Shown: piece after piece, positions 3-61,339 of the stretch
How positions within the stretch are numbered: the first letter of the stretch is position 1
Layout: each line of letters opens with the position of its first letter
Assembly: GCA_030158285.1 (NCBI GenBank)
Contig: JAOATF010000017.1
Location: 5,373-69,372, forward strand
DNA length: 64,000 nucleotides
Direction of reading: 5' to 3'
Origin: Hyphomonadaceae bacterium
GTDB lineage: Bacteria > Pseudomonadota > Alphaproteobacteria > Caulobacterales > Hyphomonadaceae
Notes under the pieces: generated by a model
What the model saw: only the letters and a program-made list of their open reading frames with translations
Told to the model about the DNA's origin: nothing
Databases searched by the model: none
Made by a program: the position numbers and the translations under genes

Positions 3-3000
3 GCCGATGCGGCGGCGGCGGCTGCTCAGGCCGCTGCTGCGGGGGCTGTTGCGGATGATGCTGCTGCGGTTGCTGCGGCGGCTGCGGCGGTTGCGGCTGC
101 GGCGGGTGAAGCGGCGGCGCTGGCGGCGCTTGCCGCAGCCCAGGGCGAGCTCAACGTGCTGGTCACCGAGGGAACGGCGCCCGGCGTCGATCCGGTCGGG
201 GCGGACCCGACGCTCGAGGCGCTGGGTCAGGGCATGGTCACGCGCGGCCCGAACTACCTGAAGTTCACGGGTGAGAACCATGTGGTCCTGGGCGGTTCGT
301 CCGGCAACGACACGCTGCTCGGCGGCAACGGCATCGATGCCCTGTGGGGCGATGATGGCGACGACCGGCTCGATGCGGGCATGGAAGTCGACCTTGTGTT
401 CGGTGGTGGCGGCAACGACGTGATCACCGACCAGGGCGGCGGCGACGGCGACTTCCTGAAGGGCGAGGAGGGCGATGACGTGATCGCCAACGGCTCCGGC
501 ATCGACATCATGATGGGCGGCTCGGGCAAGGACGCCATCTTTGGCGGCGTCGACAGTGTCGAAGTGTTCGCGGGCGAGGGCGACGACTTCGTGCTCGGCG
601 GCAATGCTGCGGACGTTATCCTCGGCTTCGAGGGCGATGACTGGATCGAAGGCGGACCCGGGTTCGACGGCATTGATGGCGACATGTCCGAACTGAACTT
701 CGACAGCAGGATCATCGGACACGACGTGCTGTTTGCCGGATCGGACGAACAGGATTTCGAAGGCGAATCCGGCGACGACATCATGGTCCAGGGCGAGAGC
801 GTGATCCGCAATGGTGGCCAGATGGGCTTCGATTGGTCGAGCTATCAGGGCTTCTCCAGATCGGCAGACGCCGACCTTGGAATCCCGATCTTCACGACGG
901 AGGCGGCGGACATCCTCCGCAACCGCTTCGACAAGGTGGAAGCCCTGTCTGGCTCGACTTTCGATGACGTCCTGTTTGGCGACAACCGCGTGTATGATCC
1001 GAACGCCAACGCTTTCGGCAACATCGAAGCCAATGTCGGCCTGGCCTTCTTCCGCGACGAGATCGACGCTGCAGGCATCGCCCGCATCGCCGGCCTCAAT
1101 CAGGTGATCAAGGCCGAGCAGATGTTCGCCGGGGTCTACGGAGCTGACTTCAGCAACGACATCAAGCAGATCTTCTCCGGCGGCAACGTGCTGCTGGGCG
1201 GCGATGGCAATGACGTTATGGCCGGCAAGGGAGGCAACGACATCCTCGATGGCGATCGCTTCCTGAACGTCCGCATCCGCATCTCGGCTGCGGGCCAGGA
1301 CAACCAGATCGCCACGATCAACTCGCTGCAACACGTGTTCACGGCGCAGGATGCGGGTGATCCGTCGTGGGTCGGCAAGTCGCTGTTCGAACTGATGGTC
1401 GCTCGCACGATCGTGCCGAGCCAGCTCCATATCGTGCGCGAGGTGCTTGACAGCGGCGTGCCGGGCGAGCTGCCGGGCGCCGATCTCGATACGGCCGTCT
1501 TCTGGGACGTGATCGACAATTATACGTTCAGCACGAACGCAGACCGGTCGGTTGTCGTGACTCATGTCACGGTCACCAATGGCGGCGTGCTGCCTCCTGG
1601 CTTCAAAGTTGGGCTGTCCGATGGCATCGACACGCTGCGTAACATCGAGCAACTCCGCTTCGGGGATGGTCTGGGCGGCTTCCAGACGTTCGGCATCGGG
1701 CAGATCGTTCCGTTCGCTGCGACCGGCAACGCCGTGATCAACGACACGACGCCTCTCCAGGGGCAGACATTGTCGGTGAACACGTCGTCGATCGCGGATC
1801 TCAACGGACTTGGGCCGTTCTCGTACCAGTGGCAGCGCTCGGCCAACAATGGCAACACGTGGCAGACCATCGGCACGGCCTCAACGCTCACGCTGCCGGA
1901 TGCGGCGGGCACCAACCTCGGTCAGTTCTTCGGCGACCTGATCCGCGTTGTCGTGACGTTCACGGACGGCATTGGCGATATCGAGACCCTTACGTCGGCT
2001 GTAACTTCGCCGATCGGCCTCAACTACACGGCTGTGGCCAGCGGCGCCGGTGTCAACATCGCGGGTCGTGGCGGCGATGATGTCATCGTCGGCAGCAACC
2101 AGGCTGATACCATCCTCGGTATGGCCGGCGCTGACACGCTGACGGGCCTCAACGGCGCCGACCAGCTGACCGGCGGCGGCGGCAACGACATCCTGTTCGG
2201 CGGCAACGGCGCTGACACGCTCAATGGCGGCGCTGACGACGACATCCTGTCGGGCGGCAACGGCGACGACATCCTGGGCGGCGGCGGCGGCGCCAATGAC
2301 CGTGCCGACTTCACCAGCGGCGTCCTCAACTACACGTTCACCACCAACGGCAACGACATCATCGTGAACAACACGGTCGGGACCGATGGAACGGACACCG
2401 TTCGCAACGTTGAAATCCTCCGCTTCGGCGCGGTGGACTATGCGGTTGTGCTCGGAACGGCCGGCGCCAACGCCAACCTCAACGGGGCGGCGGGCGCGGC
2501 GGGCAACCAGGCCGTCTTCGGTCTTGGCGGCGCCGACAGCCTGTTTGGCGGCGCGAACAGCGACATCCTCGTGGGTGGCGGCGGCAACGACACGGTCAGC
2601 GGCGGCGATGGGGATGACTTCATCTACCAGACCGGCGGTGATGATGGTCGCGACTTCGTCGACGGCGGCGCGGGCGTCGATACCTACACGCTGATGGGCG
2701 TGGCGGGCGCGGAAACCTTCCGCATCTACACCAGGGCAGCGTGGCTGGCGGTGGCCGGCAACGTGGCAGGCTCGTTGAACGCCGACACCGAGATCGTGAT
2801 CACGCGTGGCGGCGTCAACGCTGCGGCGATCATTGCGGAACTCGACAATATCGAGGAAATCCGGGTCGACTCGCTCAACACCACGGCCAATAACGGCAAC
2901 AGCACCACGCTGCCGGATGGCGGGGCGACGGGCACGGGCGACAATGTCATCGTCATCGGTGACTTCACCGGCACCAGCCTCGACTACAACACCATCCGCG

Positions 3001-3560
3001 TGCAGGGCACGAGCGCCAACGACACGATCGACATCACGGGGCTCACATCGGCCCACCGCGTGGTGTTCGACTCGAACGGCGGCCTCGACACGATCCTTGG
3101 CAACGTGCGGACCCAGGACATCTTCACGGGCGACGGTCTCAACGACCAGCGTGCCGCGTCGATTGCCCAGGCCGGCACGGGCATTGCGCCGACGGTTGGC
3201 GGAACGGACGTATCGACCTTCGGCGCGTCCGATGGCATGGACGTCCTGGTCTCCGGCCTCGGCCGGCAGGCGATGCGTGCGATGCTTGCGGATCATTGGG
3301 GTGTCAGCCGCAACGGCCCGCATCGTGTCGACCTCAGCGGCATCGACGGTTCGGACCTGACGGCGTTCCTGCTCCGCACGGATCCGGGATCGTCGAGCCA
3401 TGACCTCGGCTGGACCAATGTGGACCAGGGCCAAGACATCCAGCCGCTCGACATGGTCAACCCGGTCGATGTGCAGGCGTTTGCGCACGACAGCCTGGAG
3501 AATGTGGCGATCGACCACCGTCTCCTGACGCCATCGCTGTTCGACATCGTGCCGTTCTGA
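3..3560 (+). CDS. RTX / hemolysin-type calcium-binding repeat exoprotein (5' end lies outside the window)
   Basis: Frame 3 is open from the first bases (Ala-rich ADAAAAAAQAAAAGAV...), so the listed Met at 156 is probably internal. There are many GGxGxD nonapeptide repeats (LLGGNGIDALWGDDGDDRL, GGSGKDAIFGG, LTGGGGNDILFGGNGADTLNGGADDDILSGGNGDDILGGGGG, GGGGNDTVSGGDGDD). Stop at 3558-3560. Confidence 0.9.
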   Translation, partial: ADAAAAAAQAAAAGAVADDAAAVAAAAAAVAAAAGEAAALAALAAAQGELNVLVTEGTAPGVDPVGADPTLEALGQGMVTRGPNYLKFTGENHVVLGGSSGNDTLLGGNGIDALWGDDGDDRLDAGMEVDLVFGGGGNDVITDQGGGDGDFLKGEEGDDVIANGSGIDIMMGGSGKDAIFGGVDSVEVFAGEGDDFVLGGNAADVILGFEGDDWIEGGPGFDGIDGDMSELNFDSRIIGHDVLFAGSDEQDFEGESGDDIMVQGESVIRNGGQMGFDWSSYQGFSRSADADLGIPIFTTEAADILRNRFDKVEALSGSTFDDVLFGDNRVYDPNANAFGNIEANVGLAFFRDEIDAAGIARIAGLNQVIKAEQMFAGVYGADFSNDIKQIFSGGNVLLGGDGNDVMAGKGGNDILDGDRFLNVRIRISAAGQDNQIATINSLQHVFTAQDAGDPSWVGKSLFELMVARTIVPSQLHIVREVLDSGVPGELPGADLDTAVFWDVIDNYTFSTNADRSVVVTHVTVTNGGVLPPGFKVGLSDGIDTLRNIEQLRFGDGLGGFQTFGIGQIVPFAATGNAVINDTTPLQGQTLSVNTSSIADLNGLGPFSYQWQRSANNGNTWQTIGTASTLTLPDAAGTNLGQFFGDLIRVVVTFTDGIGDIETLTSAVTSPIGLNYTAVASGAGVNIAGRGGDDVIVGSNQADTILGMAGADTLTGLNGADQLTGGGGNDILFGGNGADTLNGGADDDILSGGNGDDILGGGGGANDRADFTSGVLNYTFTTNGNDIIVNNTVGTDGTDTVRNVEILRFGAVDYAVVLGTAGANANLNGAAGAAGNQAVFGLGGADSLFGGANSDILVGGGGNDTVSGGDGDDFIYQTGGDDGRDFVDGGAGVDTYTLMGVAGAETFRIYTRAAWLAVAGNVAGSLNADTEIVITRGGVNAAAIIAELDNIEEIRVDSLNTTANNGNSTTLPDGGATGTGDNVIVIGDFTGTSLDYNTIRVQGTSANDTIDITGLTSAHRVVFDSNGGLDTILGNVRTQDIFTGDGLNDQRAASIAQAGTGIAPTVGGTDVSTFGASDGMDVLVSGLGRQAMRAMLADHWGVSRNGPHRVDLSGIDGSDLTAFLLRTDPGSSSHDLGWTNVDQGQDIQPLDMVNPVDVQAFAHDSLENVAIDHRLLTPSLFDIVPF

Positions 3561-3944: not shown

Positions 3945-4796
3945 GTGGACACACGAGCAGGCTGGACGACAGGATTGCCGGTGCAAACGTTCTCGATCGT
4001 GACGGTCTGCTTCAACGACGCGGAGGCGCTGGCGCCGACGATCCGCAGCATAGTGGGACAGTCGTTTTCCGACTTCCAGTATGTGATCCAGGACGGCGGC
4101 TCGTCCGACGACACGGCCGGGGTGGTGAAGAGCTTTGGCGATTGGGTGGACGTTTTTACCAGCGAGCCGGATGGCGGCATCTATCCGGCGATGAACCGCG
4201 CGGTTCAACGGTGCACGGGGACCTACACGCTGTTCATCAACGCGGCCGACATGCTGGCGGGGCCAGACGTGCTGGCCGACCTGGCCGGGCAGCTGGCCGC
4301 GGGTGATGACATCGTGACGGGGCAGTCGATCGCGGTGGAGACAGGCAGGCCGCATCCGTTCCGCGCGCCGGACATGTTCTGGGGCGGCATGACGTTCGAC
4401 CACCAGGCGGCGGTGGTGCGGACGGACCTGCTGAAGCAGTTTCCCTATGACGAGGCGCTGCGCATTTCTGCCGACTTCGATTTCTTCTGCCGCATGCGGC
4501 TGCGGGGCGCGAGCTTCCGGTCGATCCCGCTGGCGATCTGCAGGAAGCCCTATGCGATGGGCGCGTCGGCAAGCTTCATCGTGCGGTTCCGCGAACGCTA
4601 TGGCGTTGCGATGCGGCACTTCGGCGATGCGTATCCGGTCGAGGAGACACTGACGCGCGAACTGGTGCAGCACATGGTGAAGACGTTCGACGCGGCGCAC
4701 CTCAAGGCGCACATGGAGACGCTGAAGGTCGACGCGCTGCTGAAGCTGCATGACGAGCTGGAAAGCCTGACAGCAGTACGGCAGAAGCGGGCGTGA
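3945..4796 (+). CDS. Glycosyltransferase family 2
   Basis: N-terminal GT-A signature FSIVTVCFNDAEALAPTIRSIVGQSFSDFQYVIQDGGSSDDT, then EPDGGIYPAMNRA. GTG start at 3945; an alternative GTG lies near 3981. Confidence 0.8.
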   Translation: MDTRAGWTTGLPVQTFSIVTVCFNDAEALAPTIRSIVGQSFSDFQYVIQDGGSSDDTAGVVKSFGDWVDVFTSEPDGGIYPAMNRAVQRCTGTYTLFINAADMLAGPDVLADLAGQLAAGDDIVTGQSIAVETGRPHPFRAPDMFWGGMTFDHQAAVVRTDLLKQFPYDEALRISADFDFFCRMRLRGASFRSIPLAICRKPYAMGASASFIVRFRERYGVAMRHFGDAYPVEETLTRELVQHMVKTFDAAHLKAHMETLKVDALLKLHDELESLTAVRQKRA

Positions 4797-5674
4797 CGGG
4801 AATGGCTAGCGCACGCACGCTGCTGGTGATTGGCAAGTCTGGGCAGCTGGCGTCGGCGTTGCAGGCGCGCGAGGGGGGCGTGGCGTGCCTCGGGCGTAAG
4901 GACGTTGATGTACTGTCGCTGGACAGCCTGCGGGTGGCGCTGGCCGTGCATGAGCCGCGCGCGGTGATCAACGCGGCGGCGTACACGGCGGTGGATCAGG
5001 CGGAGAGTGAGCGCGAGCAGGCGATGGCGCTGAATGTGGTCGCGCCACGCAATCTCGCGCGGGTGTGCGCGGATGCGGGCGTGCCGCTGGTTCATGTGTC
5101 GACCGACTATGTGTTCGATGGCGAGGATGCGCCCTATGCCGAGGATGCACCGGTGCATCCGCTGAATGTCTATGGCGAGACCAAGGCGCGCGGCGAGCAG
5201 GCGGCGATGGCGCAGGGCGGGCGTGTGTCGATCGTGCGGGCGTCGTGGGTGTTCTCGGAGCGGGGCAGCAATTTCGTGACCACCATGCTGAGGTTGGCGA
5301 AGGACCGCGCGGAGATTGATGTCGTGTCGGATGTGGCGGGACGGCCGACGAGCGCGCATGCGCTGGCGGAGGCGTGTCTTGGGGTTGCCAGCGCCATGGT
5401 GGCGGACAAAGCCACGGGCGGCGTGTTTCACTTTGCCAACGATGGCGAGGCGACGTGGTCCGTGCTGGCCGAGGCGGTGATGGACGAGGCGCGGGTGCGT
5501 GGCTGGAAGGCGGCGCGGATCAAGCCGATCCTGGCGGCGCAGTATCCGGTGAAGGCGCGGCGGCCGCGCGACAGCCGGATGGCGACGGACAGGATCGAAC
5601 GGTTGCTCGGGAAAGCGCCGCCGCACTGGCGCGTGGCTCTGGGCGACGTTCTGGATCGGATTGAGCGCGCCTGA
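4793..5674 (+). CDS. rmlD: dTDP-4-dehydrorhamnose reductase
   Basis: LLVIGKSGQLA, VINAAAYTAVDQAESE, HVSTDYVFDG, YGETKARGE. The GTG start overlaps the preceding TGA (GTGA); alternative ATG at 4802. Confidence 0.88.
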   Translation: MTGMASARTLLVIGKSGQLASALQAREGGVACLGRKDVDVLSLDSLRVALAVHEPRAVINAAAYTAVDQAESEREQAMALNVVAPRNLARVCADAGVPLVHVSTDYVFDGEDAPYAEDAPVHPLNVYGETKARGEQAAMAQGGRVSIVRASWVFSERGSNFVTTMLRLAKDRAEIDVVSDVAGRPTSAHALAEACLGVASAMVADKATGGVFHFANDGEATWSVLAEAVMDEARVRGWKAARIKPILAAQYPVKARRPRDSRMATDRIERLLGKAPPHWRVALGDVLDRIERA

Positions 5675-5751: not shown

Positions 5752-6816
5752 ATGATGCGCGCAATCGTGACGGGAGGAGCCGGCTTCATCGGTTCCGCGC
5801 TTTGCCGCCGGCTTGCCCGCACGCCCGGCTGGCAGGTGCTCAACCTCGACAAGCTGACGTATGCCGCGAACCTTGCGTCTCTGGATGGAGTAGAGGTTGC
5901 TGCCGGCTACAGCTTCCTGCAGGGCGATATCTGCGACCGGGCGCTGGTAGACCAGACATTCGCAGCGTTTTGCCCGGACGTGATCTTCCACCTTGCCGCC
6001 GAGAGCCATGTCGACCGGTCGATCACCGGCTCTGCACCGTTCGTCCAGACCAATGTGGTAGGGACGCATACGCTGCTGGAGGCGGCGCTGGCGTATTGGG
6101 GCGGGCTGAAAGGGGAGGAACGCGAGCGGTTCCGCTTCCTCCATGTCTCGACCGATGAGGTCTACGGTTCGCTGGGCGCCGAGGGGCTGTTCTCCGAGGA
6201 GACCAGCTATGATCCGCGCTCGCCCTATTCGGCCAGCAAGGCGGCGTCTGACTTCATGGCGTCGGCCTGGCATCACACCTACGGGCTGCCGGTGCTGATC
6301 TCGAACTGCTCGAACAATTACGGGCCGTTCCAGTTTCCCGAGAAGCTGATCCCGGTGGTGATCCTGAATGCGCTCGAGGGCAAACCCATCCCGGTCTATG
6401 GCGATGGTCTCAACGTGCGCGACTGGCTCCATGTCGATGATCATGTGGAGGCGCTGGCGCTGATCGCAGTGAAGGGACGGTTGGGCGAGACCTACAATGT
6501 CGGCGGCCGCAATGAGCGGACGAACCTGCAGGTGGTGCGCACGATCTGCGGCCTGCTCGATGAGTTCAGGCCGCGCGCGGACGGGACGCCGCATACCGAT
6601 CTTATCACCTATGTTACTGACCGGCCTGGCCACGACCGGCGCTATGCGATCGATGCGACCAAGCTGGAGACAGAGCTTGGCTGGCGTGCGCAGCATTCAT
6701 TTGAAACTGGCATGCGCGAGACGGTACGCTGGTATCTGGATCGCGCTGACTGGTGGCGGCCAATACGCGAGGGTCGCTTTGCGGGTGAACGACTGGGGTT
6801 GAGACCGTCTACATAG
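5752..6816 (+). CDS. rmlB: dTDP-glucose 4,6-dehydratase
   Basis: VTGGAGFIGS, HLAAESHVDRS, YSASKAASD, NCSNNYGPFQFPEKLIP, YGDGLNVRDWLHVDDH. Confidence 0.93.
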   Translation: MMRAIVTGGAGFIGSALCRRLARTPGWQVLNLDKLTYAANLASLDGVEVAAGYSFLQGDICDRALVDQTFAAFCPDVIFHLAAESHVDRSITGSAPFVQTNVVGTHTLLEAALAYWGGLKGEERERFRFLHVSTDEVYGSLGAEGLFSEETSYDPRSPYSASKAASDFMASAWHHTYGLPVLISNCSNNYGPFQFPEKLIPVVILNALEGKPIPVYGDGLNVRDWLHVDDHVEALALIAVKGRLGETYNVGGRNERTNLQVVRTICGLLDEFRPRADGTPHTDLITYVTDRPGHDRRYAIDATKLETELGWRAQHSFETGMRETVRWYLDRADWWRPIREGRFAGERLGLRPST

Positions 6817-7086
6817 CGGGATTTGCCGGCGCGCTGACAATTTCCGCGTTTGACCTGAGTCGCCAGTTCAGGGTTTCCCAGCTGAACCGCGCATGTTCGG
6901 TGCGGTGGCGCTGCGGCGTGTTTCTGGTGCTACGGCGATTGTCGTCCGGCCAGATAGTCAGTTGCCCGGTGCAAGGTTCATGGACGAACCAGCAAGCCCG
7001 CTATACGGTCAAGCTCTCAATTGGGGTGGGGTGTGCCCCATATCGCAAGAGTGGCGTTGCATTTCGGACGCGGGTGGGAGTGCGCT

Positions 7087-8880
7087 ATGCGGATACGAGG
7101 GACAGATTGGGCTGTATTGGCGGGGTTCGTTGTTGGCTTCCACATACTGGGAACAGCCTTGGTTCGGTACTTTTACAGCTATCATATCGCCCACTACGAC
7201 AGCGTCGGCGGATTGATTCAGGCGCTGGAGACTTTGCAGGTCTACCACAACCAGGGGTACGCGGCGGGCGTCGCCGAGGCGTGGAACAAGGCGCCGCTTT
7301 CAATTTCGCAGAACATGTTTTCTGCGCTCCTTGCGCCATACGTGGACCCCAGCCCTCAGGGAATCCAGCTCTACAATACGCTCGCATGCAGCGTTGCGGC
7401 TGTCGGGATGCTGGTCCTGCTTCGCCGCTTTGAAGCGGGCGCGTTGGCCATCGGGCTGGGCCTGGTCTCCATCCTGCTGGGCGATGCTCTCTACTGGTGG
7501 GACCTGGGCGCATTCGACTTCAGGCGCGACTTCGGCATGTATGCGTTCATGTGCGGCGCGCTGTTTCTTGGGACAACTTACTTTGTCGGCGCACTCAGGA
7601 TGCGTGGCGAGATCCTGCTGGGTCTGGCATTCGGCATTGCGATGGGCCTGACGCTTGTCTGCCGAGACAGCGCGCCCTTGCTGATGATGGGTGTCGTTGT
7701 CGCGCCATTGACCGCGCTCTGGGTTTTTGTCGCTGTTCGGGATGGATGGATTACGCAGATCAGGAAGCTGGCCTGGCCCCTGATCGGGTTCTCGCCCTTC
7801 GCGATCGTGTTCTTTCTCAAGCTTGGGGATCTGCTGGCGCGTATCGCGAATCCGCTGACCATGTACGGCATCAGCCCCAATGGATCGGATAGCCTGGTCG
7901 GCAATGCGCGGCGCGTGCCAGACGTTGTCCTGGGGCTGTTCGGCTATCCCTTCAACAAGGCGCCACTGATTTCAACCGTGTTGGTTTTGCTGACGCTGCT
8001 CACTTTGGGATTTTTGTGCTGGCGGGCGATGCGCAGCAAAGCCCAGGAGGCTCCCTCATCCGAAAGCCAGCAAGGTATGCAAGTACAAGAACCGGGCGGA
8101 GATCAGCACGTGGTCGCGCGGCGGGCCGTTGTGTTTCTGCTGGCGACAGCCGTCTGGGTTCCGATTTTCTTGCATCTGTTCTTTTCGCTGGTCCTGAAGT
8201 GGGCGTCGGATCAGCCGCCAATCGTCGCGATGGCGCCGTATCTGCTCGTGCTGGTCGGTGTTACTGCAGCCATTGCTGCCGGCATCATCTATTCGAGGAA
8301 CCAGATTCCCCACGGAGCAGGCAGGTTCATCGTCTCAGCGCTGATCCTGGCCATGATCGTGGCCGCCCCGGCGCGCGCGCTCACGCGAATGCCCGTCTAT
8401 CCGCCCGGCACGTATACCCAGCATCTTCAGTATACGCGCCTGACAAATGCCCAGGGCGGGGCAGCCGTGATTGCCACACTGACCGACAACACTGGCCTCA
8501 TGCGGGCGCCCGCCATTCAGCTCATGTCGTTGCAACTCGGATTGCCGCAGCCTGAAATCCTGAAATTTCGAACTGACGATGGGGGCACGCTGGATCTCCA
8601 GATCGGTATCCCTCCCGAGCCGGAAGTGCGGGAATCGCTTCTTGCCGCAATGGACAGGGCCATTCGCTGCAAGGCCGACTTTATCGTCGTCGACAAGGAT
8701 CCCGCAGCCTACACGAAGCCCGAGAAGCGATTGCTCCTGTACGGATTTGGCGACAAGCTGGCGTCCGGACTGCTGGCAGACTTGGGTGACAAGGTCATGC
8801 GCAGCCTGGATCAGAACGGCCAGATTGTCCTGATCGACAACAGAATGCGAAGCGGTTGTGCGGCCGACGGAGGTCAGTAG
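7087..8880 (+). CDS. Polytopic inner-membrane protein with a soluble C-terminal domain. Possible GT-C-type (ArnT/PMT-like) glycosyltransferase, function unproven.
   Basis: About a dozen hydrophobic helices run through the first ~440 aa, followed by a ~170-aa hydrophilic tail. GGGAG lies 7 nt upstream of ATG 7087; the ORF is open from 7021. I could assign no catalytic motif with certainty. The functional guess comes from architecture and neighbours only. Confidence 0.45.
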   Translation: MRIRGTDWAVLAGFVVGFHILGTALVRYFYSYHIAHYDSVGGLIQALETLQVYHNQGYAAGVAEAWNKAPLSISQNMFSALLAPYVDPSPQGIQLYNTLACSVAAVGMLVLLRRFEAGALAIGLGLVSILLGDALYWWDLGAFDFRRDFGMYAFMCGALFLGTTYFVGALRMRGEILLGLAFGIAMGLTLVCRDSAPLLMMGVVVAPLTALWVFVAVRDGWITQIRKLAWPLIGFSPFAIVFFLKLGDLLARIANPLTMYGISPNGSDSLVGNARRVPDVVLGLFGYPFNKAPLISTVLVLLTLLTLGFLCWRAMRSKAQEAPSSESQQGMQVQEPGGDQHVVARRAVVFLLATAVWVPIFLHLFFSLVLKWASDQPPIVAMAPYLLVLVGVTAAIAAGIIYSRNQIPHGAGRFIVSALILAMIVAAPARALTRMPVYPPGTYTQHLQYTRLTNAQGGAAVIATLTDNTGLMRAPAIQLMSLQLGLPQPEILKFRTDDGGTLDLQIGIPPEPEVRESLLAAMDRAIRCKADFIVVDKDPAAYTKPEKRLLLYGFGDKLASGLLADLGDKVMRSLDQNGQIVLIDNRMRSGCAADGGQ

Positions 8881-8977
8881 CCTTGTTGCTGGAAGGGCTT
8901 GTCGAACGTCTGCTTGAGTCTGGGGATGACACCCGATCCGGCGACCTCGAGACAAGCGGAAAGTTTGGGATGGGCAA

Positions 8978-9628
8978 ATGAAGTTTCCTGCTGGTTTTAC
9001 CCCCGGTGCGCGTACCATGATCGCCGCAATGCTGGCCTGCATGGCGGCAGCTTGTGATCCGCCGGAGTCCATGAGGGACGAACTGATGGGGCGTATTCCG
9101 AACGCCTCGTCTGGAGAGGCGGCAAACTCGTCCGAAAATGCCACGTCTGACGGCGCGCTTCCGGCGCAGCCGGCCTTTGCATGGCAGGCTGTGAAGCCGA
9201 GTACGATCATCAACGCTGGTCCTCCCGCCGTCCTTGAATTGTCCTCCGGTTACGCGTTCATTTTCTATCCGTCGTTCGCCGTTTCCAGCGGCGACAACGT
9301 CACTTTCAGATTTCGGGCTTCAGGGCGGCAGGGGAAACTGCGATCTGTGCTGATGCGACATTGCGGCGCCGGCTCGGAAGCGGACTCAGATTCACAGGTG
9401 CTGGACATTGGAGAGACAGCAGCAGACTACACGCTGAAGCATGTCTTTGCCGAAGCGCATCCTTGTCTCCGCGTGACGTTCCAGGCGATTGGACCGCCCA
9501 ATTCGATCACGATTCATTCGTGGCGTCTGTCAGTTGCACCGAAGGCCACTACCACGCCGGCAGCGGATGCCACGGCGACTGCGCAACCTGCCGCTTCAGA
9601 TGGAAGCAAGCCGTCTCCTGCCAACTAG
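8978..9628 (+). CDS. Small secreted protein or lipoprotein, paralogue family member 1 (MRHC motif)
   Basis: Signal-like N-terminus MIAAMLACMAAAC. Its core aligns with the 26703-27239 product: SGDNVTFRF..LRSVLMRHC..ADYTLKHVFAEAHPCLRVTF versus AGDDIVVKG..VRLVMMRHC..ADFEISHTFAASYGCIRLSV. T/A/P-rich tail. Confidence 0.6.
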   Translation: MKFPAGFTPGARTMIAAMLACMAAACDPPESMRDELMGRIPNASSGEAANSSENATSDGALPAQPAFAWQAVKPSTIINAGPPAVLELSSGYAFIFYPSFAVSSGDNVTFRFRASGRQGKLRSVLMRHCGAGSEADSDSQVLDIGETAADYTLKHVFAEAHPCLRVTFQAIGPPNSITIHSWRLSVAPKATTTPAADATATAQPAASDGSKPSPAN

Positions 9629-9730
9629 CAGCGAGAACGAGCTCTTGGCCATGATGAACAACGCGGGTATTTCGCAGGCGTTTCGGAAGGCGTATCCGGC
9701 TGATCAGACGTATTCACGAGGCGCAGATTC

Positions 9731-10864
9731 ATGATTCCGTTCAACAGGCCAAGTCTCGTCGGGAACGAACTCGACTATATTCGTGAGGCTGTTGAGCTCG
9801 GCCATCTCTCGGGCGATGGCCAGTTCTCGAAACGGTGCCATGCCTGGCTTGAAGCGGCTGTGGGCGGACAGGCTCTGCTTACGCATTCCTGCACTGCCGC
9901 CCTGGAGATGGCCGCAATACTGGCGGACCTTCAACCGGGCGACGAAGTGATCATGCCGTCCTACACGTTCGTTTCGACTGCAAATGCCGTCGCCCTGCGC
10001 GGGGCAATTCCGGTGTTTGTGGATATACGACCGGACACGTTGAACATCGACGAGACCCTGATCGAGAGCGCGATCACGAATCGAACCCGTGCGATAATCG
10101 CGGTTCACTACGCGGGCGTGTGCGCCGAAATGGATGCGATTTCCGAGATCGCAAAACGGCACGGGCTGTTCGTGATCGAGGATGCAGCGCAGGCCTTGAT
10201 GTCGACCTACAAGGGACGGCCCGCGGGTTCGCTTTCCGATGCCGCTGCCTTCAGTTTTCACGAAACCAAGAACCTCCTGTCCGGTGAAGGCGGGGCGCTG
10301 GTCGTGCAGAATGAAAAACTCATGGAACGCGCCGAGATAATTCGGGAGAAGGGCACCAACCGGCGCCAGTTCTTCAGGGGCGCTGTGGACAAGTACACCT
10401 GGGTCGATATCGGCTCCTCGTTTCTCCCGAGCGAGCTGGTGGCGGCGTTCCTGCTGGCGCAGCTGGAAAACGGGAATGTCATCACACAAAAGCGGATCGA
10501 CATTTGCCAGACGTATCGTGCCGCTTTTGTAGATGCTGCAAAATCGGGTCGCATCGCCTTACCGGTAGTTCCTCAGCATTGCGGCTTCAACGGCCACATG
10601 TTTTACGTGCTGTTTCCCGGCATCGAAGGCCGGACGAAGTTCATGAACGCCATGAAGGCTGCTGGCGTGATGACACCGTTTCACTATGTGCCGCTGCATT
10701 CATCGCCAGCAGGGCGGCGTTTTGGCAGACATCATGGTGAACTCAAGACAACAGATTCGGTGAGCGAGCGGTTGGTGCGTTTCCCGGTCTTCTTTGACCT
10801 TGGCGACAATCAGGACCGGGTGATTGCGGCGGCCTTGCGCGCGCTTGATGAGATCGGGGTCTAG
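9731..10864 (+). CDS. wecE: dTDP-4-amino-4,6-dideoxygalactose (TDP-4-keto-6-deoxyglucose) transaminase, DegT/DnrJ/EryC1 family
   Basis: The N-terminus MIPFNRPSLVGNELDYIREAVELGHLSGDGQFSKRCHAWLE closely resembles E. coli WecE as I recall it. PLP-aminotransferase core: SCTAALEMA, FVIEDAAQA, SFHETKN. Confidence 0.85.
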   Translation: MIPFNRPSLVGNELDYIREAVELGHLSGDGQFSKRCHAWLEAAVGGQALLTHSCTAALEMAAILADLQPGDEVIMPSYTFVSTANAVALRGAIPVFVDIRPDTLNIDETLIESAITNRTRAIIAVHYAGVCAEMDAISEIAKRHGLFVIEDAAQALMSTYKGRPAGSLSDAAAFSFHETKNLLSGEGGALVVQNEKLMERAEIIREKGTNRRQFFRGAVDKYTWVDIGSSFLPSELVAAFLLAQLENGNVITQKRIDICQTYRAAFVDAAKSGRIALPVVPQHCGFNGHMFYVLFPGIEGRTKFMNAMKAAGVMTPFHYVPLHSSPAGRRFGRHHGELKTTDSVSERLVRFPVFFDLGDNQDRVIAAALRALDEIGV

Positions 10865-10870
10865 GCTCAG

Positions 10871-11314
10871 TTGGCTGTAGAGCAAGCACAGGCGCGCCGG
10901 GACCATGCACGATCATTCGTGCGTTACCTGATCGTCGGCGTGGTGAACAATCTTGCGCTCTATCTGGTGATGCTGGCGCTGCTCGCCGCCGGACTCGTCG
11001 CCTGGCAAGCCACGCTGCTTGTCTATCCGACGGGAGTGGCCGTCTCCTACGTCCTCAACAAGATCTGGAGTTTTAGCCGGCGACGGCGTCGTCGCGGTCA
11101 GTTCTTGGCTTATCTAGCGGTGTATGGAAGCGCCTATCCACTTGCGATAGGGTCTGCCTGGGCCGTGGAGCATATGGGCGCTGGAGGCGCCCTGGCCGCT
11201 CTTGCCGGAATCGTTGTTCCAACGGCATTCATTTTTCTGGGGCTGTCGTTCTGGGTGTTCAGGCATGAGGAAGCGGAACAGCCTTCGGAAGACCTCACTC
11301 CAACCCGCCAATGA
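10871..11314 (+). CDS. GtrA-family small membrane protein (polyprenyl-phosphate-sugar translocase-like)
   Basis: FVRYLIVGVVNNLALYLVMLALL plus three more hydrophobic helices; typical GtrA size and layout. Start uncertain (TTG 10871 or in-frame GTG near 10919). The stop overlaps the next start (ATGA). Confidence 0.75.
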   Translation: MAVEQAQARRDHARSFVRYLIVGVVNNLALYLVMLALLAAGLVAWQATLLVYPTGVAVSYVLNKIWSFSRRRRRRGQFLAYLAVYGSAYPLAIGSAWAVEHMGAGGALAALAGIVVPTAFIFLGLSFWVFRHEEAEQPSEDLTPTRQ

Positions 11315-12264
11315 TCTCGACGCGAGTAGCCATGCAGCCTGTAATATCCGTGATCTCACCCTGCTACGGCTCGCCCAAGGCCTTGGCGGAGCTGTATCAA
11401 CGAACCGCCGCGACGATGGCCAAGATCGGCGTGCCCTTCGAGATGATCCTGGTTGATGACCGATGCCCGATGGACTCGTGGTCGGTGATCCGGACATTGG
11501 CGGCAGAGCACGACAATGTCGTCGCGATCAGGCTCTCGCGGAATTTTGGACAACATCCCGCGATATATGCTGGCCTGGCGCAGGCCAAAGGCGAGTGGAT
11601 TGTGGTGATGGACTGCGACCTTCAGGATCAGCCTGAAGAAATCGAAGCCATGTATCGGCATGCCCTGACCGGATTCGATGCGGTGCGCGCGCGCCGGTCA
11701 AGGCGCAAGGACAACTTCATTCGCCGGTTCCTCTCGAACCGGTTCTACGCTGTGCTGACATTTCTGACGGGTGTGAAGCACAGCGCCGAGGTCGCCAATT
11801 TCGGGGTCTATCATCGCAAGGTGATCGACGGGATCATGTCGTGGAGCGAGGACCACCGCTATTTTCCGGCCGCTGTGCAGTGGATCGGGTTCAATATCAG
11901 CGATCTCAGCGTCGAACACGCCAATCGCAAGTACGGTCGATCATCCTACAATTTTCGACGGCTCATGCGGCTGGCGCTTTCGGTCATAGTATCCTTTTCA
12001 GACAAGCCGCTGCGCATGATGGTCCAGGCTGGCGTTGTCGTGGCCTTGCTGTCCTTCGTCATTTCGGTGGCCTATCTCGGCGTTGCACTCGCAGGAGGCT
12101 TTGTGGTTCCCGGGTGGGCCTCGATCATGATTTCGCTGTGGTTCATTTCTGGCTGCATGATCTTCGCAATCGGCTTCGTTGGCATCTATGTCGGGCAGGT
12201 CATGCGCGAGGCGAAGGGAAGGCCGAATTATATTGTCGATGTCGTCTTGAACGCCAGGGAATAG
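11311..12264 (+). CDS. Polyprenyl-phosphate sugar transferase, GT2 (ArnC / GtrB / DPM1-like)
   Basis: ISVISPCYGS, ILVDDRCPMDS, RLSRNFGQHPAIYAGLAQAKGEWIVVMDCDLQDQPEEI. Two C-terminal TM helices and GQVMREAKGRPNYIV, colinear with E. coli ArnC as I recall it. Confidence 0.85.
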   Translation: MISTRVAMQPVISVISPCYGSPKALAELYQRTAATMAKIGVPFEMILVDDRCPMDSWSVIRTLAAEHDNVVAIRLSRNFGQHPAIYAGLAQAKGEWIVVMDCDLQDQPEEIEAMYRHALTGFDAVRARRSRRKDNFIRRFLSNRFYAVLTFLTGVKHSAEVANFGVYHRKVIDGIMSWSEDHRYFPAAVQWIGFNISDLSVEHANRKYGRSSYNFRRLMRLALSVIVSFSDKPLRMMVQAGVVVALLSFVISVAYLGVALAGGFVVPGWASIMISLWFISGCMIFAIGFVGIYVGQVMREAKGRPNYIVDVVLNARE

Positions 12265-12288
12265 CGAAGTCTTCGCGGGAGCCGGCAG

Positions 12289-13008
12289 ATGCAGTTCACC
12301 TTTTCTGATATTGAAACGCAGCGTTTCGGCGTTCGTGCGGCTCGGTGCGACGATTTTCGGGCAGGCGACTGGCATGAGCTTGCGGCCCGAATTGCGGAGC
12401 ATGATTGCCGGCTGGTGACCGTCCGGTGCGATGCCGCCGAGCTATCCGCAGCCCAGACAATTGTCGCGCATGGCGGCAACCTGATGGACACCGTTGTGAC
12501 GATGGAAGCCGTACAGCTGGATACTGCGGTTTCCCGGTTGCCGGCCGCCGATGGACTGGTGCGCGTGGGAGGAGAGGGCGATGCAGAGGTGATTGACCTG
12601 TTGGCGCGAGAAGCGTTCAGCGACTATGTCAATCACTACCGGGCCGACCCCAGGCTGGATGAGCAGGCGGTTACCGATGCGATGGCCGAATGGACTGTCT
12701 CGTTTGCAAGGCCAACCTCGCATCAAGCCATCCTGCTTGGTCATGACGCCAGCGCGGTGCAGGCTTTTGCGGCCATGAAAGTATCCGGCGACACGGCCGA
12801 GGGCGTGCTGCATGGCGTTTCAAGACAAGGGCGTGGACGTGGCTGGTACAAGGGGCTGCTGATCGCAGGGATGCGCTGGGGAGAGGAAAGAGACTGCAAG
12901 CGAATGACCGTGACAACGCAGCTTCACAACCTGACAACACAACGCACAATGGCCGGGCTGGGGATGCGCATCTGTGGGGCCCGATATACGTTTCACCTAT
13001 GGCTTTGA
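12289..13008 (+). CDS. wecD: GNAT acyltransferase, WecD-like (dTDP-fucosamine N-acetyltransferase)
   Basis: FSDIETQRFGVRAARC at the N-terminus and KRMTVTTQLHNLTTQRTMAGLGMRICGARYTFHLWL at the C-terminus parallel E. coli WecD (WENAFFGV...; [34 protein letters not shown]). Sits in the same block as wecE. Confidence 0.6.
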   Translation: MQFTFSDIETQRFGVRAARCDDFRAGDWHELAARIAEHDCRLVTVRCDAAELSAAQTIVAHGGNLMDTVVTMEAVQLDTAVSRLPAADGLVRVGGEGDAEVIDLLAREAFSDYVNHYRADPRLDEQAVTDAMAEWTVSFARPTSHQAILLGHDASAVQAFAAMKVSGDTAEGVLHGVSRQGRGRGWYKGLLIAGMRWGEERDCKRMTVTTQLHNLTTQRTMAGLGMRICGARYTFHLWL

Positions 13009-13125
13009 GCGGCGGCCACATCGCCCTGCTTGCGTGTCCTGAGAGCCCTGCTATCGCAGCCTGTGGCATGCGTACGTCGTCGAGCAACCAGTCTGGGCTG
13101 ACACAGGGTTAAATCCGGAGACATC

Positions 13126-14007
13126 ATGACGAACTGGAAAGGCATTATTCTGGCGGGTGGAACGGGTTCACGCCTCTTTCCGCTGACGATCGCCGTGAAC
13201 AAGCACTTGCTGCCGGTGTATGACAAACCGATGATCTACTATCCGCTGTGCACCCTGATGCTTTCAGGCATCCGTGACATCGCGATTGTGTCGACACCTG
13301 ATGCGATCCCTGCGATCGAACAGCTGCTCGGCGACGGAAAGCGCTGGGGGCTCTCCTTCGAGTACCTGATTCAGGACCAGCCACGCGGGATCGCAGACGC
13401 GTTCCGGGTGGCTGAAGATTTTATTGGTGATGCAAACACCGGCCTGATCCTTGGCGATAACATTATCCACGGCAGCGGCCTGCAGGACAAACTCGCCGGT
13501 TGCCTGCGCCGGGCAACAGGGGCTTCGATCTTCGGCTATGAGGTTTCAGATCCATCCGCCTTCGGCGTCGTTACCCTGGATGGCGAGGGAAAAGCCGTTT
13601 CAATCGTCGAGAAGCCCAAGCAATCCAAATCCCGTCTCGCGGTTCCGGGCCTCTATTTCTTCGACGCCGAAGCCGGCAGAATTGCGAAGGGACTGAAGCC
13701 CTCGGCCCGCGGCGAACTGGAAGTGACCGATGTGTTGGGTGACTACATGCGCCGCAACAAGCTTCATGTTGAGCGCTTCGGACGCGGGACAGCGTGGCTT
13801 GATGGCGGCACACCCGAAGCGCTTTATGAAGCCACCCAGTTTGTGAAGGTGGTCGAAGACCGTTCCGGATTGAAGATTGCCTGTCCCGAGGAAATCGCCT
13901 GGCGGCTTGGCTATATCGACCTATCCGAATTTCGTGAGCTGGCGCGGAAAGCATCAACGACAGCCTATAATTCGTATCTGCAGGCTCTTGCGGAAAGCGA
14001 AAGCTAG
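13126..14007 (+). CDS. rmlA: Glucose-1-phosphate thymidylyltransferase
   Basis: KGIILAGGTGSRLFPLT, KHLLPVYDKPMIYYPL, QDQPRGIADAF, EVTDV. GGAGA RBS upstream. Confidence 0.93.
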   Translation: MTNWKGIILAGGTGSRLFPLTIAVNKHLLPVYDKPMIYYPLCTLMLSGIRDIAIVSTPDAIPAIEQLLGDGKRWGLSFEYLIQDQPRGIADAFRVAEDFIGDANTGLILGDNIIHGSGLQDKLAGCLRRATGASIFGYEVSDPSAFGVVTLDGEGKAVSIVEKPKQSKSRLAVPGLYFFDAEAGRIAKGLKPSARGELEVTDVLGDYMRRNKLHVERFGRGTAWLDGGTPEALYEATQFVKVVEDRSGLKIACPEEIAWRLGYIDLSEFRELARKASTTAYNSYLQALAESES

Positions 14008-14138
14008 ACTGGGTCTGCGGTGTCCGCGGGAGGTCAGCCCGCTCGCCATGTCGCATGGAGATTTTGCGCAGTGCCGATGCAACTTGGCTGTATATAGACA
14101 GCAGCGAGCGCTGGTTCAGGTGCGCCGTGGAGGCCGTG

Positions 14139-14690
14139 ATGGATGTTCGCCGGACAAAGCTCGCGGGCGTGCTGGTGATTGTTCCAGCCCGCTTCGAGGA
14201 TGCGCGGGGGTTCTTCGCGCCAGTGTTCCAGCAGCGCGTGCTGGAGGCGGCAGGCGTGACGCATGGCTGGGTGCAAGAGAACCAGTCGCTGTCCCGGCGC
14301 AAGGGGACGGTGCGTGGCCTGCATTTCCAGCGGCCGCCTTTTACGCAGGCCAAGCTGGTACGCGTGGTGCGTGGGGCGGCGTTGGATGTATGTGTCGACT
14401 TGCGGCGGACATCGCCGACCTACGCCCAGCATACCACCGTTGAACTCACGGCAGAAAATCTCACGCAGGTCTATATCCCTCCCGGATTTGCACATGGTTT
14501 TTGCGCCCTCTCCGACGATGTCGAAGTGCTCTACAAGGTCTCCGCTGACTGGTCTCCCGCGCACGAGGGCGGAGTGATGTGGAACGACGCGGCGCTCGGG
14601 ATAGACTGGCCGGTGACTGCCGATGAGGCCGTGTTGTCAGACAAGGATCGGGTGTTGCCGCCCCTGGCTGAGCTTGGTCCGATCTTCTAG
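14139..14690 (+). CDS. rmlC: dTDP-4-dehydrorhamnose 3,5-epimerase
   Basis: [54 protein letters not shown]. The ORF is open from 14055, but [10 protein letters not shown] at 14139 gives the normal length. Confidence 0.88.
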
Positions 14691-16764: not shown

Positions 16765-17238
16765 ACCCAGAATGCCTGTCCTTGCTTTCGCTGCCGCGCG
16801 CCGGGTTCTGCGAACCGGTGCGGGGCATTGAGGTCCCCGATGTCGTGCCGGCAGAAATGACCCGAAAACGAGCCCTTCATACCGTGATCCCCTCGTCCCA
16901 CGGGCAGGCTGAGGCCGCCAGTGGAGTGCTGCATTTCGCAGAGCCGAAGCTGGAAATCCAGCAGAAAATGGGCCGCTTTGACTATCTGTAAGGCAGCGCG
17001 ATCCGCGACCGAAATGCCGCCCAACGGGGCCGGTGGGCCGGTGCGCCCCGCAATCGTTTCCGGACGGGCAATGGAACTTAAAATGCTCCGCGGGGGTGAA
17101 TTAAGTCCGTGTTCGCTGTCGGACCCTATATCTAGACTGTTGGCCCAGGGCGGAGGTTTCGTCCCGGGCCTGGAAAGTCAGTACGCGCCTACCCGGCCCC
17201 GGCAGGGGCAAAGTGCGCGGTGGTGGAGCCTGGACTGC

Positions 17239-19753: not shown

Positions 19754-21178
19754 CTACGTCTGAGGCGGGGGCAATCCTGCGACAGGTCGACTGACATCCG
19801 ACAGCGGCGTGATCGCATCGTCGGCCTCCTGGTCCTGCTCCGAAGAAGCGGCGAGCCGCCCAGGGGGCTCGGGTTGCAGCTGGCCGACCGTCATCCGGAT
19901 ATCCGTCAGCGCACCTTCCAGGTCGCGCATGAACGTTCCCATTGCCATTTGCCAAGCTGCGACTGGCTGGTTGGCAATTGATGCTCCGGCGCCGTGGTTT
20001 CTGGCCACGCCAAGCATTTCAGGCGCATTGCTCTGCGTTTCTGCAATTGCCCGGAGCTCCTGCACGGCATCTGCTCGCGCTGCCTCGACTGTGTCGAGCT
20101 TGCTGGTGAGTTCCTGTATCTGACGTCTCGCGTCCTTGACCTGCCGCTCTCGCTCCTCAAGGCGGCTCTTCAGTGCGGCTGCCCTGTCATTGGCGATCTG
20201 CAACTTCGAAATGAGGGAATCGCGTTGCTCGGTGGCCGCATCCTGTTGGGAGTCGAGATTGGAACGAAGCATCGTGTTGTGCTCATCGGCAACCAGGACC
20301 CTTCCCTCAAGTTCACGTATCTGGTCGTCCTTCCTTGCCAGCAGCATCGCCATGCCGGGCGCGAGCTCAGGCATAGGCAGCTCCGCGCCGGCATTGGCCA
20401 GTGCTGCCTCGTGCCGCCGAAGATCGAGTTGTTGCCGAAGCGTCTCGATGGTGGCGAAGGTCTCATCGACGTAGGCGAACCGGTTGCCGCGTACGCCGCA
20501 GTCAGCATTGACGCCTCGCTTCAGTCGATCTCTCGCTGCTTCATAGATTTCGAATTCAAGTGGCCACTGCTTTTCGAAGCGCGATCGGTCCGCAGCCGTG
20601 AGCGAGAGCAGCTGGGGATCTCGCGTTCCGATGCGGACTGCCGGAACCTCGATCCTTGGTTTTCCAACAACGTCCGCCAGAAGATCGAGCGAGCGCTGCA
20701 TGTCGGCCGTATCGCCAACAACCGAGAAGGAATCCAGCGCCAGCTGAACATGCTCGGCGCTCGAAATGCCCAAGGCCATGCTGTGCTGGAATGGATGACC
20801 CTGTTCGAGGAATGACGTCAGCCCTCCAACCACATCCTTATCAACATCCTTGAGGTGGTAGTATGCCGACACCGCATGTTCGAACGGATCTCTGAGGATC
20901 GTAAAGAGACAATGCTCCGAGGGCGTGCGCAGGCCCTTGACGAGATCAAGCAGGGCCAGCGGATGCCCAGTCAGGCGGCATGCGAAATGGCCCGCTACGC
21001 CCAATTCCCTGTCGGCGAGATCGATCGAACCCACTTTGTCCGAAAACTCAGTGTCCCGCATCAGATCCGGGTACCACGTTTCCAACACGCGCTTGCAGCT
21101 TGTGCCCGCAGTTTTGGGAATATGGTAGTAAATCAGCAATGTTCGTTTTCTCCCCCAAGCTGTTGCGCCGACGTTCAT
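19754..21178 (-). CDS. Sulfotransferase (family-2-like) fused to a C-terminal coiled-coil region
   Basis: LLIYYHIPKTAGTSCKRVLE (5'-PSB) and TILRDPFEHAVSAYYH (3'-PB). These are followed by ~170 aa of heptad-like, Pro-poor sequence (DDQIRELEGRVLVADEHNTMLRSNLDSQQDAATEQRDSLISKLQIANDRAAALKSRLEERERQVKDARRQIQELTSKLDTVEAARADAVQELRAI). The ORF is open to 21262. Confidence 0.7.
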   Translation of the reverse strand: MNVGATAWGRKRTLLIYYHIPKTAGTSCKRVLETWYPDLMRDTEFSDKVGSIDLADRELGVAGHFACRLTGHPLALLDLVKGLRTPSEHCLFTILRDPFEHAVSAYYHLKDVDKDVVGGLTSFLEQGHPFQHSMALGISSAEHVQLALDSFSVVGDTADMQRSLDLLADVVGKPRIEVPAVRIGTRDPQLLSLTAADRSRFEKQWPLEFEIYEAARDRLKRGVNADCGVRGNRFAYVDETFATIETLRQQLDLRRHEAALANAGAELPMPELAPGMAMLLARKDDQIRELEGRVLVADEHNTMLRSNLDSQQDAATEQRDSLISKLQIANDRAAALKSRLEERERQVKDARRQIQELTSKLDTVEAARADAVQELRAIAETQSNAPEMLGVARNHGAGASIANQPVAAWQMAMGTFMRDLEGALTDIRMTVGQLQPEPPGRLAASSEQDQEADDAITPLSDVSRPVAGLPPPQT

Positions 21179-48553: not shown

Positions 48554-48582
48554 GACGACCCGTAGCCTATGAGGCGGACAAG

Positions 48583-61329: not shown

Positions 61330-61339
61330 AATCCGTCCC

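Follow-up and report, generated by a model that had tools for sequence, protein, structure and literature searches.

A 64,000-nucleotide stretch of a contig from a Hyphomonadaceae bacterium (JAOATF010000017.1), referred to here at its full length as the window, carries six genes between rmlB and rmlA that probably constitute a self-contained three-component extracytoplasmic glycosylation system with its own nucleotide-sugar branch. The interval (positions 6817-13125, 6309 bp) encodes, all on the + strand, a polytopic membrane protein, a small lipoprotein, a WecE-type aminotransferase, a GtrA-family protein, an ArnC/GtrB-type glycosyltransferase of family GT2 and a two-domain GNAT N-acyltransferase, together called the module below (Table 1). 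The original prediction for this DNA, made from the letters alone, had described both this gene content and the parting of rmlD-rmlB from rmlA-rmlC by 6.3 kb, and both were borne out by an open reading frame (ORF) map and by Pfam and NCBIfam scans, which covered the module genes and 50 window ORFs. Its central proposal, a module building and using a 4-acetamido-4,6-dideoxyhexose linked to undecaprenyl phosphate (Und-P), is supported as well, with neither the fold of the membrane protein nor the grouping of the GT2 speaking against it.

The strongest functional argument for the module comes from comparative genomics. The association of its genes is found in about eight independent loci, in which the genes stand in different orders, and it is not due to chance. 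Within a few kilobases of relatives of the membrane protein (57% down to 28% identity), an aminotransferase of WecE-equivalog grade is encoded together with an ArnC-like GT2 in the loci L001, L002, L003, L007, L008/L009 and L012 and on the P0003 contig. Of these, only L007 and L012 lack the GNAT and only L008/9 lacks RmlA and RmlB; GtrA is present in most, being undetected in L008/9. Additionally, a 4-kb Robiginitomaculum contig from a metagenome-assembled genome (MAG; L004) carries a wecE-like gene and rmlA beside a member of the membrane protein family, and L015 carries a GT2 beside another. Gene order in the clade of the window is membrane protein-lipoprotein-wecE-(methyltransferase)-gtrA-GT2-GNAT; in L002 and L003 it is wecE-GT2-GNAT-membrane protein with gtrA on the opposite strand, and in L007 it is wecE-membrane protein-gtrA. 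Because the order differs between loci, we take the association to be kept by selection and not by the descent of one operon.

The chemistry of the N-acylation step appears to vary among these loci. L007, whose membrane protein (L007:10001-11755) is 40% identical to that of the window, has no GNAT; an ArnA-like formyltransferase (NF005414, 5e-61; ArnA N-domain, 1.6e-57) directly follows the ArnC-like GT2 (L007:18264-20166), which suggests an N-formyl variant of the module. Such a swap of formyltransferase for GNAT would be expected if an N-acyl-4-amino sugar loaded on Und-P were the common theme. Separately, an extra S-adenosylmethionine-dependent methyltransferase is encoded in or beside the module in several relatives (L001:13832-14692, P0003 contig 7192-8052, L002:8690-9520, L007:14206-14985 and L008:13756-14628), where the sugar that is passed on may carry a methyl group; nowhere in the window was a counterpart of the L001, L002 or L007 copies detected by tblastn.

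The membrane protein at 7087-8880, whose ATG start is consistent with its homologues, had no match in Pfam, NCBIfam or PDB sequences by phmmer and profile searches. None of 65 aligned members of its family matched any GT-C Pfam family, and an hhalign comparison with E. coli ArnT gave a probability of 1%, leaving sequence kinship undetectable. Similarity to GT-C enzymes was present at the level of the fold only. A first AlphaFold model, from an eight-sequence alignment, was poor (predicted local distance difference test, pLDDT, 58), and GT-C enzymes still ranked first; the AlphaFold (AF2) model from the 65-sequence alignment reached a pLDDT of 94.6 and a predicted template-modelling score (pTM) of 0.93. 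The top 17 Foldseek matches in the PDB were all GT-C enzymes (probability 0.99-1.00), the best of them ArnT (5f15; E 7e-6; template-modelling (TM) score 0.50/0.54), and the others included DPY19, AglB, AftB, PglB, Pmt/PMT, EmbB, ALG3 and AftA. Transporters ranked below the GT-C enzymes, with TM scores of ~0.1.

The arrangement of the protein in the membrane is in line with this fold. Both the AF2 model and hydropathy indicate about 11 transmembrane helices, and a cytoplasmic N-terminus fits the positive-inside rule; given that orientation, the C-terminal soluble domain of about 160 residues (approximately 433-597, with two invariant cysteines) is predicted to be periplasmic. Enzymes of the GT-C fold have a conserved acidic residue just after the first transmembrane helix, in the first extracytoplasmic loop. 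At this position the family has D38, in the motif HYDSVG directly after the first helix, which does not vary in 22 sequences and is at least 90% conserved across 65. Also conserved are W138, G141, D144, R147 and D148 between the third and fourth helices and R193 and D194 between the fifth and sixth, so that every conserved polar residue lies on a loop predicted to be periplasmic, a layout in keeping with the pattern of ArnT/PglB-type (GT-C_A) enzymes. On the basis of the structural model, we place the protein in an undescribed family of enzymes with the GT-C fold. Eight proteins like it came from a word-indexed search of 5.8 billion clusters, and 84 family members from an exhaustive profile search of 1.84 billion representatives, with all named members labelled hypothetical. 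A polyprenyl-phosphate-linked donor is predicted for this enzyme from its gene context, as an ArnC-like GT2 and GtrA are its neighbours both in the window and in most of the related loci.

The GT2 groups over its full length with polyprenyl-phosphate transferases, as the original prediction had supposed. Its residues 11-313 align with residues 9-314 of the 322 of ArnC (9hwj; E 1.1e-46), and the match to the cyanobacterial GtrB sll0501 is as good (8e-46); its identity to E. coli ArnC is 30%. The motifs RNxGQH (as RNFGQH) and DxDLQxxPEEI (as DCDLQDQPEEI) are kept, and transmembrane peaks at residues 242-290 mark the C-terminal membrane hairpin. The protein passes neither the ArnC equivalog NF007986 (182.5 bits, cut-off 529) nor its best NCBIfam match, PgfS NF047588 (189.3 bits, cut-off 500; 9e-56), and by these scores it is a separate subfamily of polyprenyl-phosphate GT2s. 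Its ATG overlaps the TGA of gtrA as ATGA (11311-11314), suggesting that the two are translated together. GtrA itself matches PF04138 with 57.6 bits (cut-off 26.1) and may start at TTG 10871 or GTG 10919; a simple hydropathy scan gave two clear peaks only, against the four hydrophobic segments expected of the family. As a member of the GtrA family, it is a candidate flippase for the lipid-linked sugar.

In the nucleotide-sugar branch, the aminotransferase passes the WecE equivalog NF008687 (578 bits, cut-off 375), scores 565 bits against TIGR02379 and has WecE as its best PDB match (4piw; 9e-142), with ArnB next and far behind (1e-50); its earlier description as WecE-like thus holds. The GNAT, described earlier as WecD-like, resembles WecD in its length and two-domain alignment, and its likeness at equivalog level is weak, with 31 bits against NF008212 (cut-off 219; 1.9e-7; profile positions 41-227 of 232) and 20 bits against TIGR02382 (cut-off 195), neither of which it passes. 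A four-sequence GNAT profile aligned residues 89-233 with residues 94-231 of WecD in the PDB (2fs5; E 1e-3), and the protein is conserved in L001-L003 at 51-70% identity. Judged by these scores, the GNAT is not a WecD orthologue, but it may have a WecD-like function.

Taken in order, RmlA and RmlB would supply dTDP-4-keto-6-deoxy-D-glucose (dTDP, deoxythymidine diphosphate), which the WecE-type aminotransferase would convert to dTDP-4-amino-4,6-dideoxy-D-galactose (dTDP-Fuc4N) and the WecD-like GNAT would N-acetylate to dTDP-Fuc4NAc. The ArnC/GtrB-type GT2 would then load the sugar on undecaprenyl phosphate at the cytoplasmic face, GtrA would assist the passage of Und-P-Fuc4NAc across the inner membrane, and the GT-C protein would pass the sugar to a periplasmic acceptor, most likely an O-polysaccharide after its export by an ATP-binding cassette (ABC) transporter and before ligation by WaaL.

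As acceptor we favour an O-polysaccharide assembled by the ABC-transporter route, because Wzm/Wzt transporters are encoded in the window and in several related loci (L003, L007 and L009) and because the window encodes a WaaL-like ligase. The same chemistry up to the lipid-linked sugar could instead serve lipid A or the core, as an envelope modification like those of the Arn, Lgm and Flm systems, a reading that we consider distinctly unlikely. ArnT is the single best structural match, and the 4-aminotransferase, the N-acyltransferase and the ArnC-like GT2 parallel ArnB, ArnA and ArnC, with one variant of the module even having an ArnA-like formyltransferase; however, an ArnT-like fold is common to all GT-C_A enzymes, which makes the top match uninformative on the acceptor, and the module sits among O-polysaccharide genes (rml, gmd/rmd, Wzm/Wzt) in the window and in related loci. 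No ArnD-type deformylase or ArnD/NaxD-type deacylase (polysaccharide deacetylase, PF01522) and no member of the SMR family was found among the module genes and the 50 scanned window ORFs. Since no such deacylase was found, the sugar would stay neutral, with no effect on charge. The part of flippase would moreover fall to GtrA and not to ArnE/F.

The Arn pathway, with lipid A as its target, still offers the closest biochemical analogy to the predicted module, as both would combine a 4-aminotransferase, N-acylation, an ArnC-type GT2 loading Und-P, a flipping step and transfer by a GT-C enzyme. They differ in the sugar, a UDP-pentose in Arn and a predicted dTDP-6-deoxyhexose here, and in context, lipid A against O-polysaccharide. 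In addition, the module has GtrA in place of the SMR-type ArnE/F, and its GT-C protein has no sequence similarity to ArnT.

The lipoprotein at 8978-9628 has a lipobox cysteine, Cys26, that is conserved among homologues. A linker of low complexity follows, and a conserved ~120-residue domain carries a VLMRHCG motif and two invariant cysteines. A search of 5.8 billion clusters returned only 11 homologues, none with a Pfam domain; homologues occur in L001, L002 and the P0003 contig. A second lipoprotein (window 26703-27257, - strand, lipobox LAGC) is a weak paralogue (28% identity over 79 residues, E 1e-6) that has a (L/V)(V/L)MMRHC motif and a second cysteine in common with it; the gene sits between those for a transketolase and a cytidylyltransferase.

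The module lipoprotein also bears on whether proteins could be the acceptor. O-glycosylation of periplasmic or surface proteins, PMT- or Pgf-like, with the co-conserved lipoprotein and a neighbouring RTX protein (156-3560) as candidate targets, would agree with the co-occurrence of the lipoprotein with the closest GT-C clade, with its PT-rich tails and Ser/Thr/Pro/Ala-rich linkers, with the presence of PMT enzymes among the fold matches and with PgfS, of the streptococcal Pgf protein-glycosylation machinery, as the best NCBIfam match of the GT2. That PgfS score lies far under its cut-off, however; no copy of the lipoprotein was found in L003, L007, L008/9 or L012, where the rest of the module is present, and the homologue in L002 has no PT-rich tail. 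In other respects the loci have the usual make-up of polysaccharide loci, being rich in glycosyltransferases and methyltransferases and encoding ABC transporters, and we regard protein glycosylation as very unlikely.

Least probable of all, with only a slim chance of being right, is a route with no lipid-linked monosaccharide, in which an ordinary cytoplasmic GT2 would add Fuc4NAc directly to the growing Und-PP-linked glycan and the polytopic protein would act in polymerisation, ligation, export or acylation: the dTDP donor is read from gene context, with no precedent known to us in the GT2 class, and the assignment to GT-C is made from a predicted structure, but the GT2 has the full ArnC/GtrB architecture with a C-terminal membrane hairpin absent from ordinary GT2s and is translationally coupled to GtrA, the top fold matches are all GT-C enzymes dependent on lipid-phospho-sugars while transporters remain at the low TM scores given above, and the four-way co-occurrence across shuffled loci would otherwise be hard to explain.

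Several points also weigh against the lipid-linked sugar system that we prefer. The GT-C call is drawn from a predicted structure with moderate TM scores (0.4-0.54) and without a sequence-level signal. The donor of the GT2 is not readable from homology because the protein falls below the ArnC and PgfS equivalog cut-offs, the stereochemistry of the aminotransferase product (galacto or gluco) is read from family membership, and the likeness of the GNAT to WecD is marginal. More broadly, the acceptor, the chemistry and the product are predicted from genes. The characterised ArnC, GtrB and DPMS enzymes known to us use UDP- or GDP-sugars, and we know of no dTDP-sugar donor demonstrated for this class.

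The nearest genetic precedent, by analogy, is region 3 of the Xanthomonas wxc cluster. Its WxcL is reportedly GtrB-like and its WxcN GtrA-like (Vorholter et al. 2001). The gene list of the region in X. campestris and X. hortorum runs wxcK-wxcL-wxcM-wxcN-wxcO (PMC12573098). Mutants in wxcK (aminotransferase) or wxcN (small membrane protein) lose the FucNAc (Fuc3NAc) branches of the rhamnan O-antigen, and addition of these branches is reported to be independent of that of the main chain (PMC4878081). Like the module, region 3 has a dTDP-aminosugar branch with an aminotransferase and an acetyltransferase, the glycosyltransferase WxcL, the small WxcN and a further membrane protein, WxcO, and it adjoins rml and gmd/rmd genes. 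It differs in making a 3-amino sugar by way of a 3,4-ketoisomerase from the bifunctional WxcM, whereas the module has a WecE-type 4-aminotransferase and a GNAT acetyltransferase, and no isomerase domain was seen in it; the membrane parts are compared here by description only. No Xanthomonas member of the GT-C family was found in pattern scans of 185,579 species genomes.

The Gtr systems of Shigella, Salmonella and phages (GtrA, GtrB and GtrC) have the same three-component logic, with GtrA and GtrB families and a polytopic GT-C enzyme. In contrast to these, the module is predicted to handle an N-acetyl-amino-dideoxyhexose with dedicated nucleotide-sugar genes and not housekeeping UDP-Glc, lies on the chromosome in a lipopolysaccharide (LPS) locus with no prophage features, and has a GT-C protein of another family. 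Gtr-type decoration can reportedly act on O-antigens of the ABC-transporter route as well (Mann et al., J Biol Chem 2015).

A further comparison is offered by the three-component pentofuranose system of Citrobacter youngae O1/O2 and its GT136 family (Kelly et al., PNAS 2024, PMC11127046). It resembles the predicted module in decorating an O-polysaccharide extracytoplasmically after polymerisation, with a dedicated synthase for the lipid-linked donor and a small flippase, and GT136, like the GT-C family of the window, is newly recognised and has a C-terminal soluble domain (PMC11127046). The donor in C. youngae is made from phosphoribosyl pyrophosphate (PRPP) by a polyprenyl-phosphoribose synthase, whereas the synthase of the module is a GT2; its flippase is a four-helix, EmrE/ArnE-like protein classed in the MATE family, whereas the candidate of the module is GtrA; and GT136 is related in sequence to ArnT, which the GT-C family of the window is not (PMC11127046). 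Finally, the Fuc4NAc branch of the enterobacterial common antigen (RmlA/RmlB, WecE, WecD and WecF of Enterobacterales) has the same predicted nucleotide-sugar chemistry, with a WecE-grade aminotransferase and a WecD two-domain GNAT. There, WecF moves Fuc4NAc from dTDP directly to lipid II in the cytoplasm, whereas the module encodes an Und-P route, and no WecF-type (GT56) transferase was matched in the 50 scanned window ORFs.

The original prediction had also been made with no described Und-P-Fuc4NAc side-branch system known to its author. The open-access literature makes no mention of Und-P-Fuc3NAc, Und-P-Fuc4NAc, Und-P-QuiNAc or Und-P-Rha. The Xanthomonas wxcK-O genes for Fuc3NAc branches are a close genetic precedent. 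The kind of system is already known; what is new here is a GT-C family that seems not to have been described before, together with a predicted dTDP-fed route to an Und-P-sugar that appears to be unprecedented.

The GT-C family is rare and the module type is broader. A first pattern scan of the species genomes (alignment A1) gave no GT-C family match, and a second (alignment A3) gave three loci, all in MAGs (Robiginitomaculum, Alcaligenaceae and Methylococcaceae). A search of 72,556 plasmids by tblastn gave no GT-C match, and of the four loci from a metagenome scan for the family, two were too short for use. Analogous modules were seen on plasmids of cultured Rhodobacterales: that of Pseudorhodobacter turbinis (L011:4932-10388) has an rffA/WecE-type transaminase, an ArnC-like GT2, GtrA, a GNAT and a polytopic protein, and that of Ruegeria sp. 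SCSIO 43209 (L010:3044-7899) has rffA, an ArnC-like GT2, with a hexapeptide-repeat protein after it, and a polytopic protein, with GtrA not listed. Their GT2s have identities of 39-40%, and their polytopic proteins, annotated as hypothetical protein, have 500-508 residues and a soluble C-terminus. No homology of these polytopic proteins to the GT-C protein was detectable, with an hhalign probability of 0.15% and no Pfam match.

The base composition of the locus bears on how the module came to lie where it does. The six module genes have a G+C content (GC) of 0.574-0.604 and a third-position GC (GC3) of 0.63-0.74, compared with a GC of 0.687 in rmlD, 0.628 in rmlB and 0.638 in the whole window. 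The lower GC claimed for the gap was thus right in direction, but it is not limited to the gap, since rmlA is as low (GC 0.574, GC3 0.66). Window rmlA moreover shares 80% identity with the rmlA behind the module in L001, whereas rmlB reaches just 60% with its L001 counterpart, and in related loci the module has its own rmlB-rmlA pair without rmlC or rmlD. Because its GC is as low as that of the module and because of its identity to the L001 gene, rmlA is probably part of the low-GC block, which we take to span about 7087-14007. No direct or inverted repeats above chance length flank the block, none of the 50 scanned window ORFs matched a transposase, integrase or other mobile-element family, and promoter and terminator motifs were no more frequent than in shuffled sequence. 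The earlier description of the module as inserted between rmlDB and rmlAC is roughly right as to position; a simple, clean insertion was rejected, as the block takes in rmlA and has no insertion hallmarks, whether repeats or mobile marks.

Table 1 Genes of the module and of its surroundings in the window
Feature	Position	Strand	Basis and remarks
rmlD (dTDP-4-dehydrorhamnose reductase)	4793-5674	+	TIGR01214 1.4e-85, above cut-off; flanking context
rmlB	5752-6816	+	TIGR01181 468 bits, cut-off 365; makes dTDP-4-keto-6-deoxyglucose, the aminotransferase substrate
GT-C-fold membrane glycosyltransferase, 597 aa, predicted periplasmic transferase	7087-8880	+	AlphaFold model and Foldseek
Small lipoprotein, 216 aa	8978-9628	+	Lipobox ...AAAC26, alignment of homologues
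WecE-type dTDP-4-keto-6-deoxy-D-glucose 4-aminotransferase (DegT family), predicted product dTDP-Fuc4N	9731-10864	+	NF008687, TIGR02379, PDB WecE
GtrA-family small membrane protein, candidate flippase for lipid-linked sugar	10871-11314	+	PF04138
ArnC/GtrB-type polyprenyl-phosphate glycosyltransferase (GT2), C-terminal transmembrane hairpin	11311-12264	+	PDB ArnC, GtrB sll0501
Two-domain GNAT N-acyltransferase, predicted dTDP-Fuc4N N-acetyltransferase	12289-13008	+	NF008212 below cut-off; PDB WecD 2fs5
rmlA (glucose-1-phosphate thymidylyltransferase)	13126-14007	+	TIGR01207 387 bits, cut-off 361
rmlC (dTDP-4-dehydrorhamnose 3,5-epimerase)	14139-14690	+	PF00908 1.9e-66; flanking context
Wzt/Wzm-type ABC transporter pair	47600-49410	+	PF00005 1e-18; PF01061 ABC2_membrane 1.2e-10; context only
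WaaL-like O-antigen ligase	49536-50762	+	PF04932 Wzy_C 2.7e-17; ~9 hydrophobic peaks; context only

For rmlC, the longest ORF (14055-14690, + strand) begins 28 codons before the likely start and the Pfam match begins at residue 34; the true start is probably Met29 of that ORF, at 14139 and not 14055.

The window holds further glycan genes outside the module. The presence of genes for a NeuB-family synthase, a KpsS/KpsC-like capsule protein, a KpsF/KdsD-like isomerase with SIS and CBS domains and a KdsB-like cytidylyltransferase (31013-33818, - strand, and 60289-62143, + strand) indicates more than one glycan pathway there, of ulosonic-acid or capsule type as well as O-polysaccharide. Genes for an aldehyde dehydrogenase, a CTP_transf_3 cytidylyltransferase and a transketolase-like enzyme form a trio (24677-29607, - strand) that lies 16 kb from the GT-C gene in the window and probably makes another activated sugar or acid; it adjoins the GT-C family in L001 (L001:5576-9840, 82-88% identity), while the P0003 contig and L015:1-621 have the transketolase-like gene only and L005:4754-9188 has the aldehyde dehydrogenase and cytidylyltransferase only. 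A 927-residue sulfotransferase-GT2 fusion (16921-19704, + strand) and a second, weak sulfotransferase-like ORF (19754-21262, - strand) hint that the polysaccharide of the locus may be sulfated. At the edge of the LPS locus, the RTX calcium-binding nonapeptide repeat protein (1134 residues; 156-3560, + strand; eight separate Pfam matches, 1.6e-30) may be secreted or of S-layer type.

Three-component systems consisting of a synthase, a flippase and a GT-C enzyme are a main source of post-polymerisation antigenic variation and of change in phage receptors and immune epitopes, and every newly found donor sugar or GT-C family has been notable, as with GacI-L and, in 2024, GT136. A more far-reaching version of our proposal, to which we would give rather low odds, is that the GT-C family lies beyond existing profiles and is specialised for Und-P-linked N-acyl-4-amino-4,6-dideoxyhexoses, as the first dTDP-fed three-component system, with interchangeable N-acetyl and N-formyl forms; at its boldest, the acceptor would be lipid A-core or envelope proteins, and the Cys/His lipoprotein would be a periplasmic partner, either binding the acceptor or acting as an Arn-like de-N-acylase. 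If the system that we propose is real, N-acyl-4-amino-4,6-dideoxyhexoses would join the short list of sugars delivered by Und-P, and ArnC/GtrB-type enzymes would be shown able to accept dTDP-sugars. The acetyl and formyl systems would provide a natural pair for the study of donor specificity and for glycoengineering. Furthermore, a GT-C family wholly missed by current profile libraries would mean that envelope-decoration systems are under-annotated, and the module would link the Arn paradigm of lipid A and the Gtr paradigm of O-antigen mechanistically.

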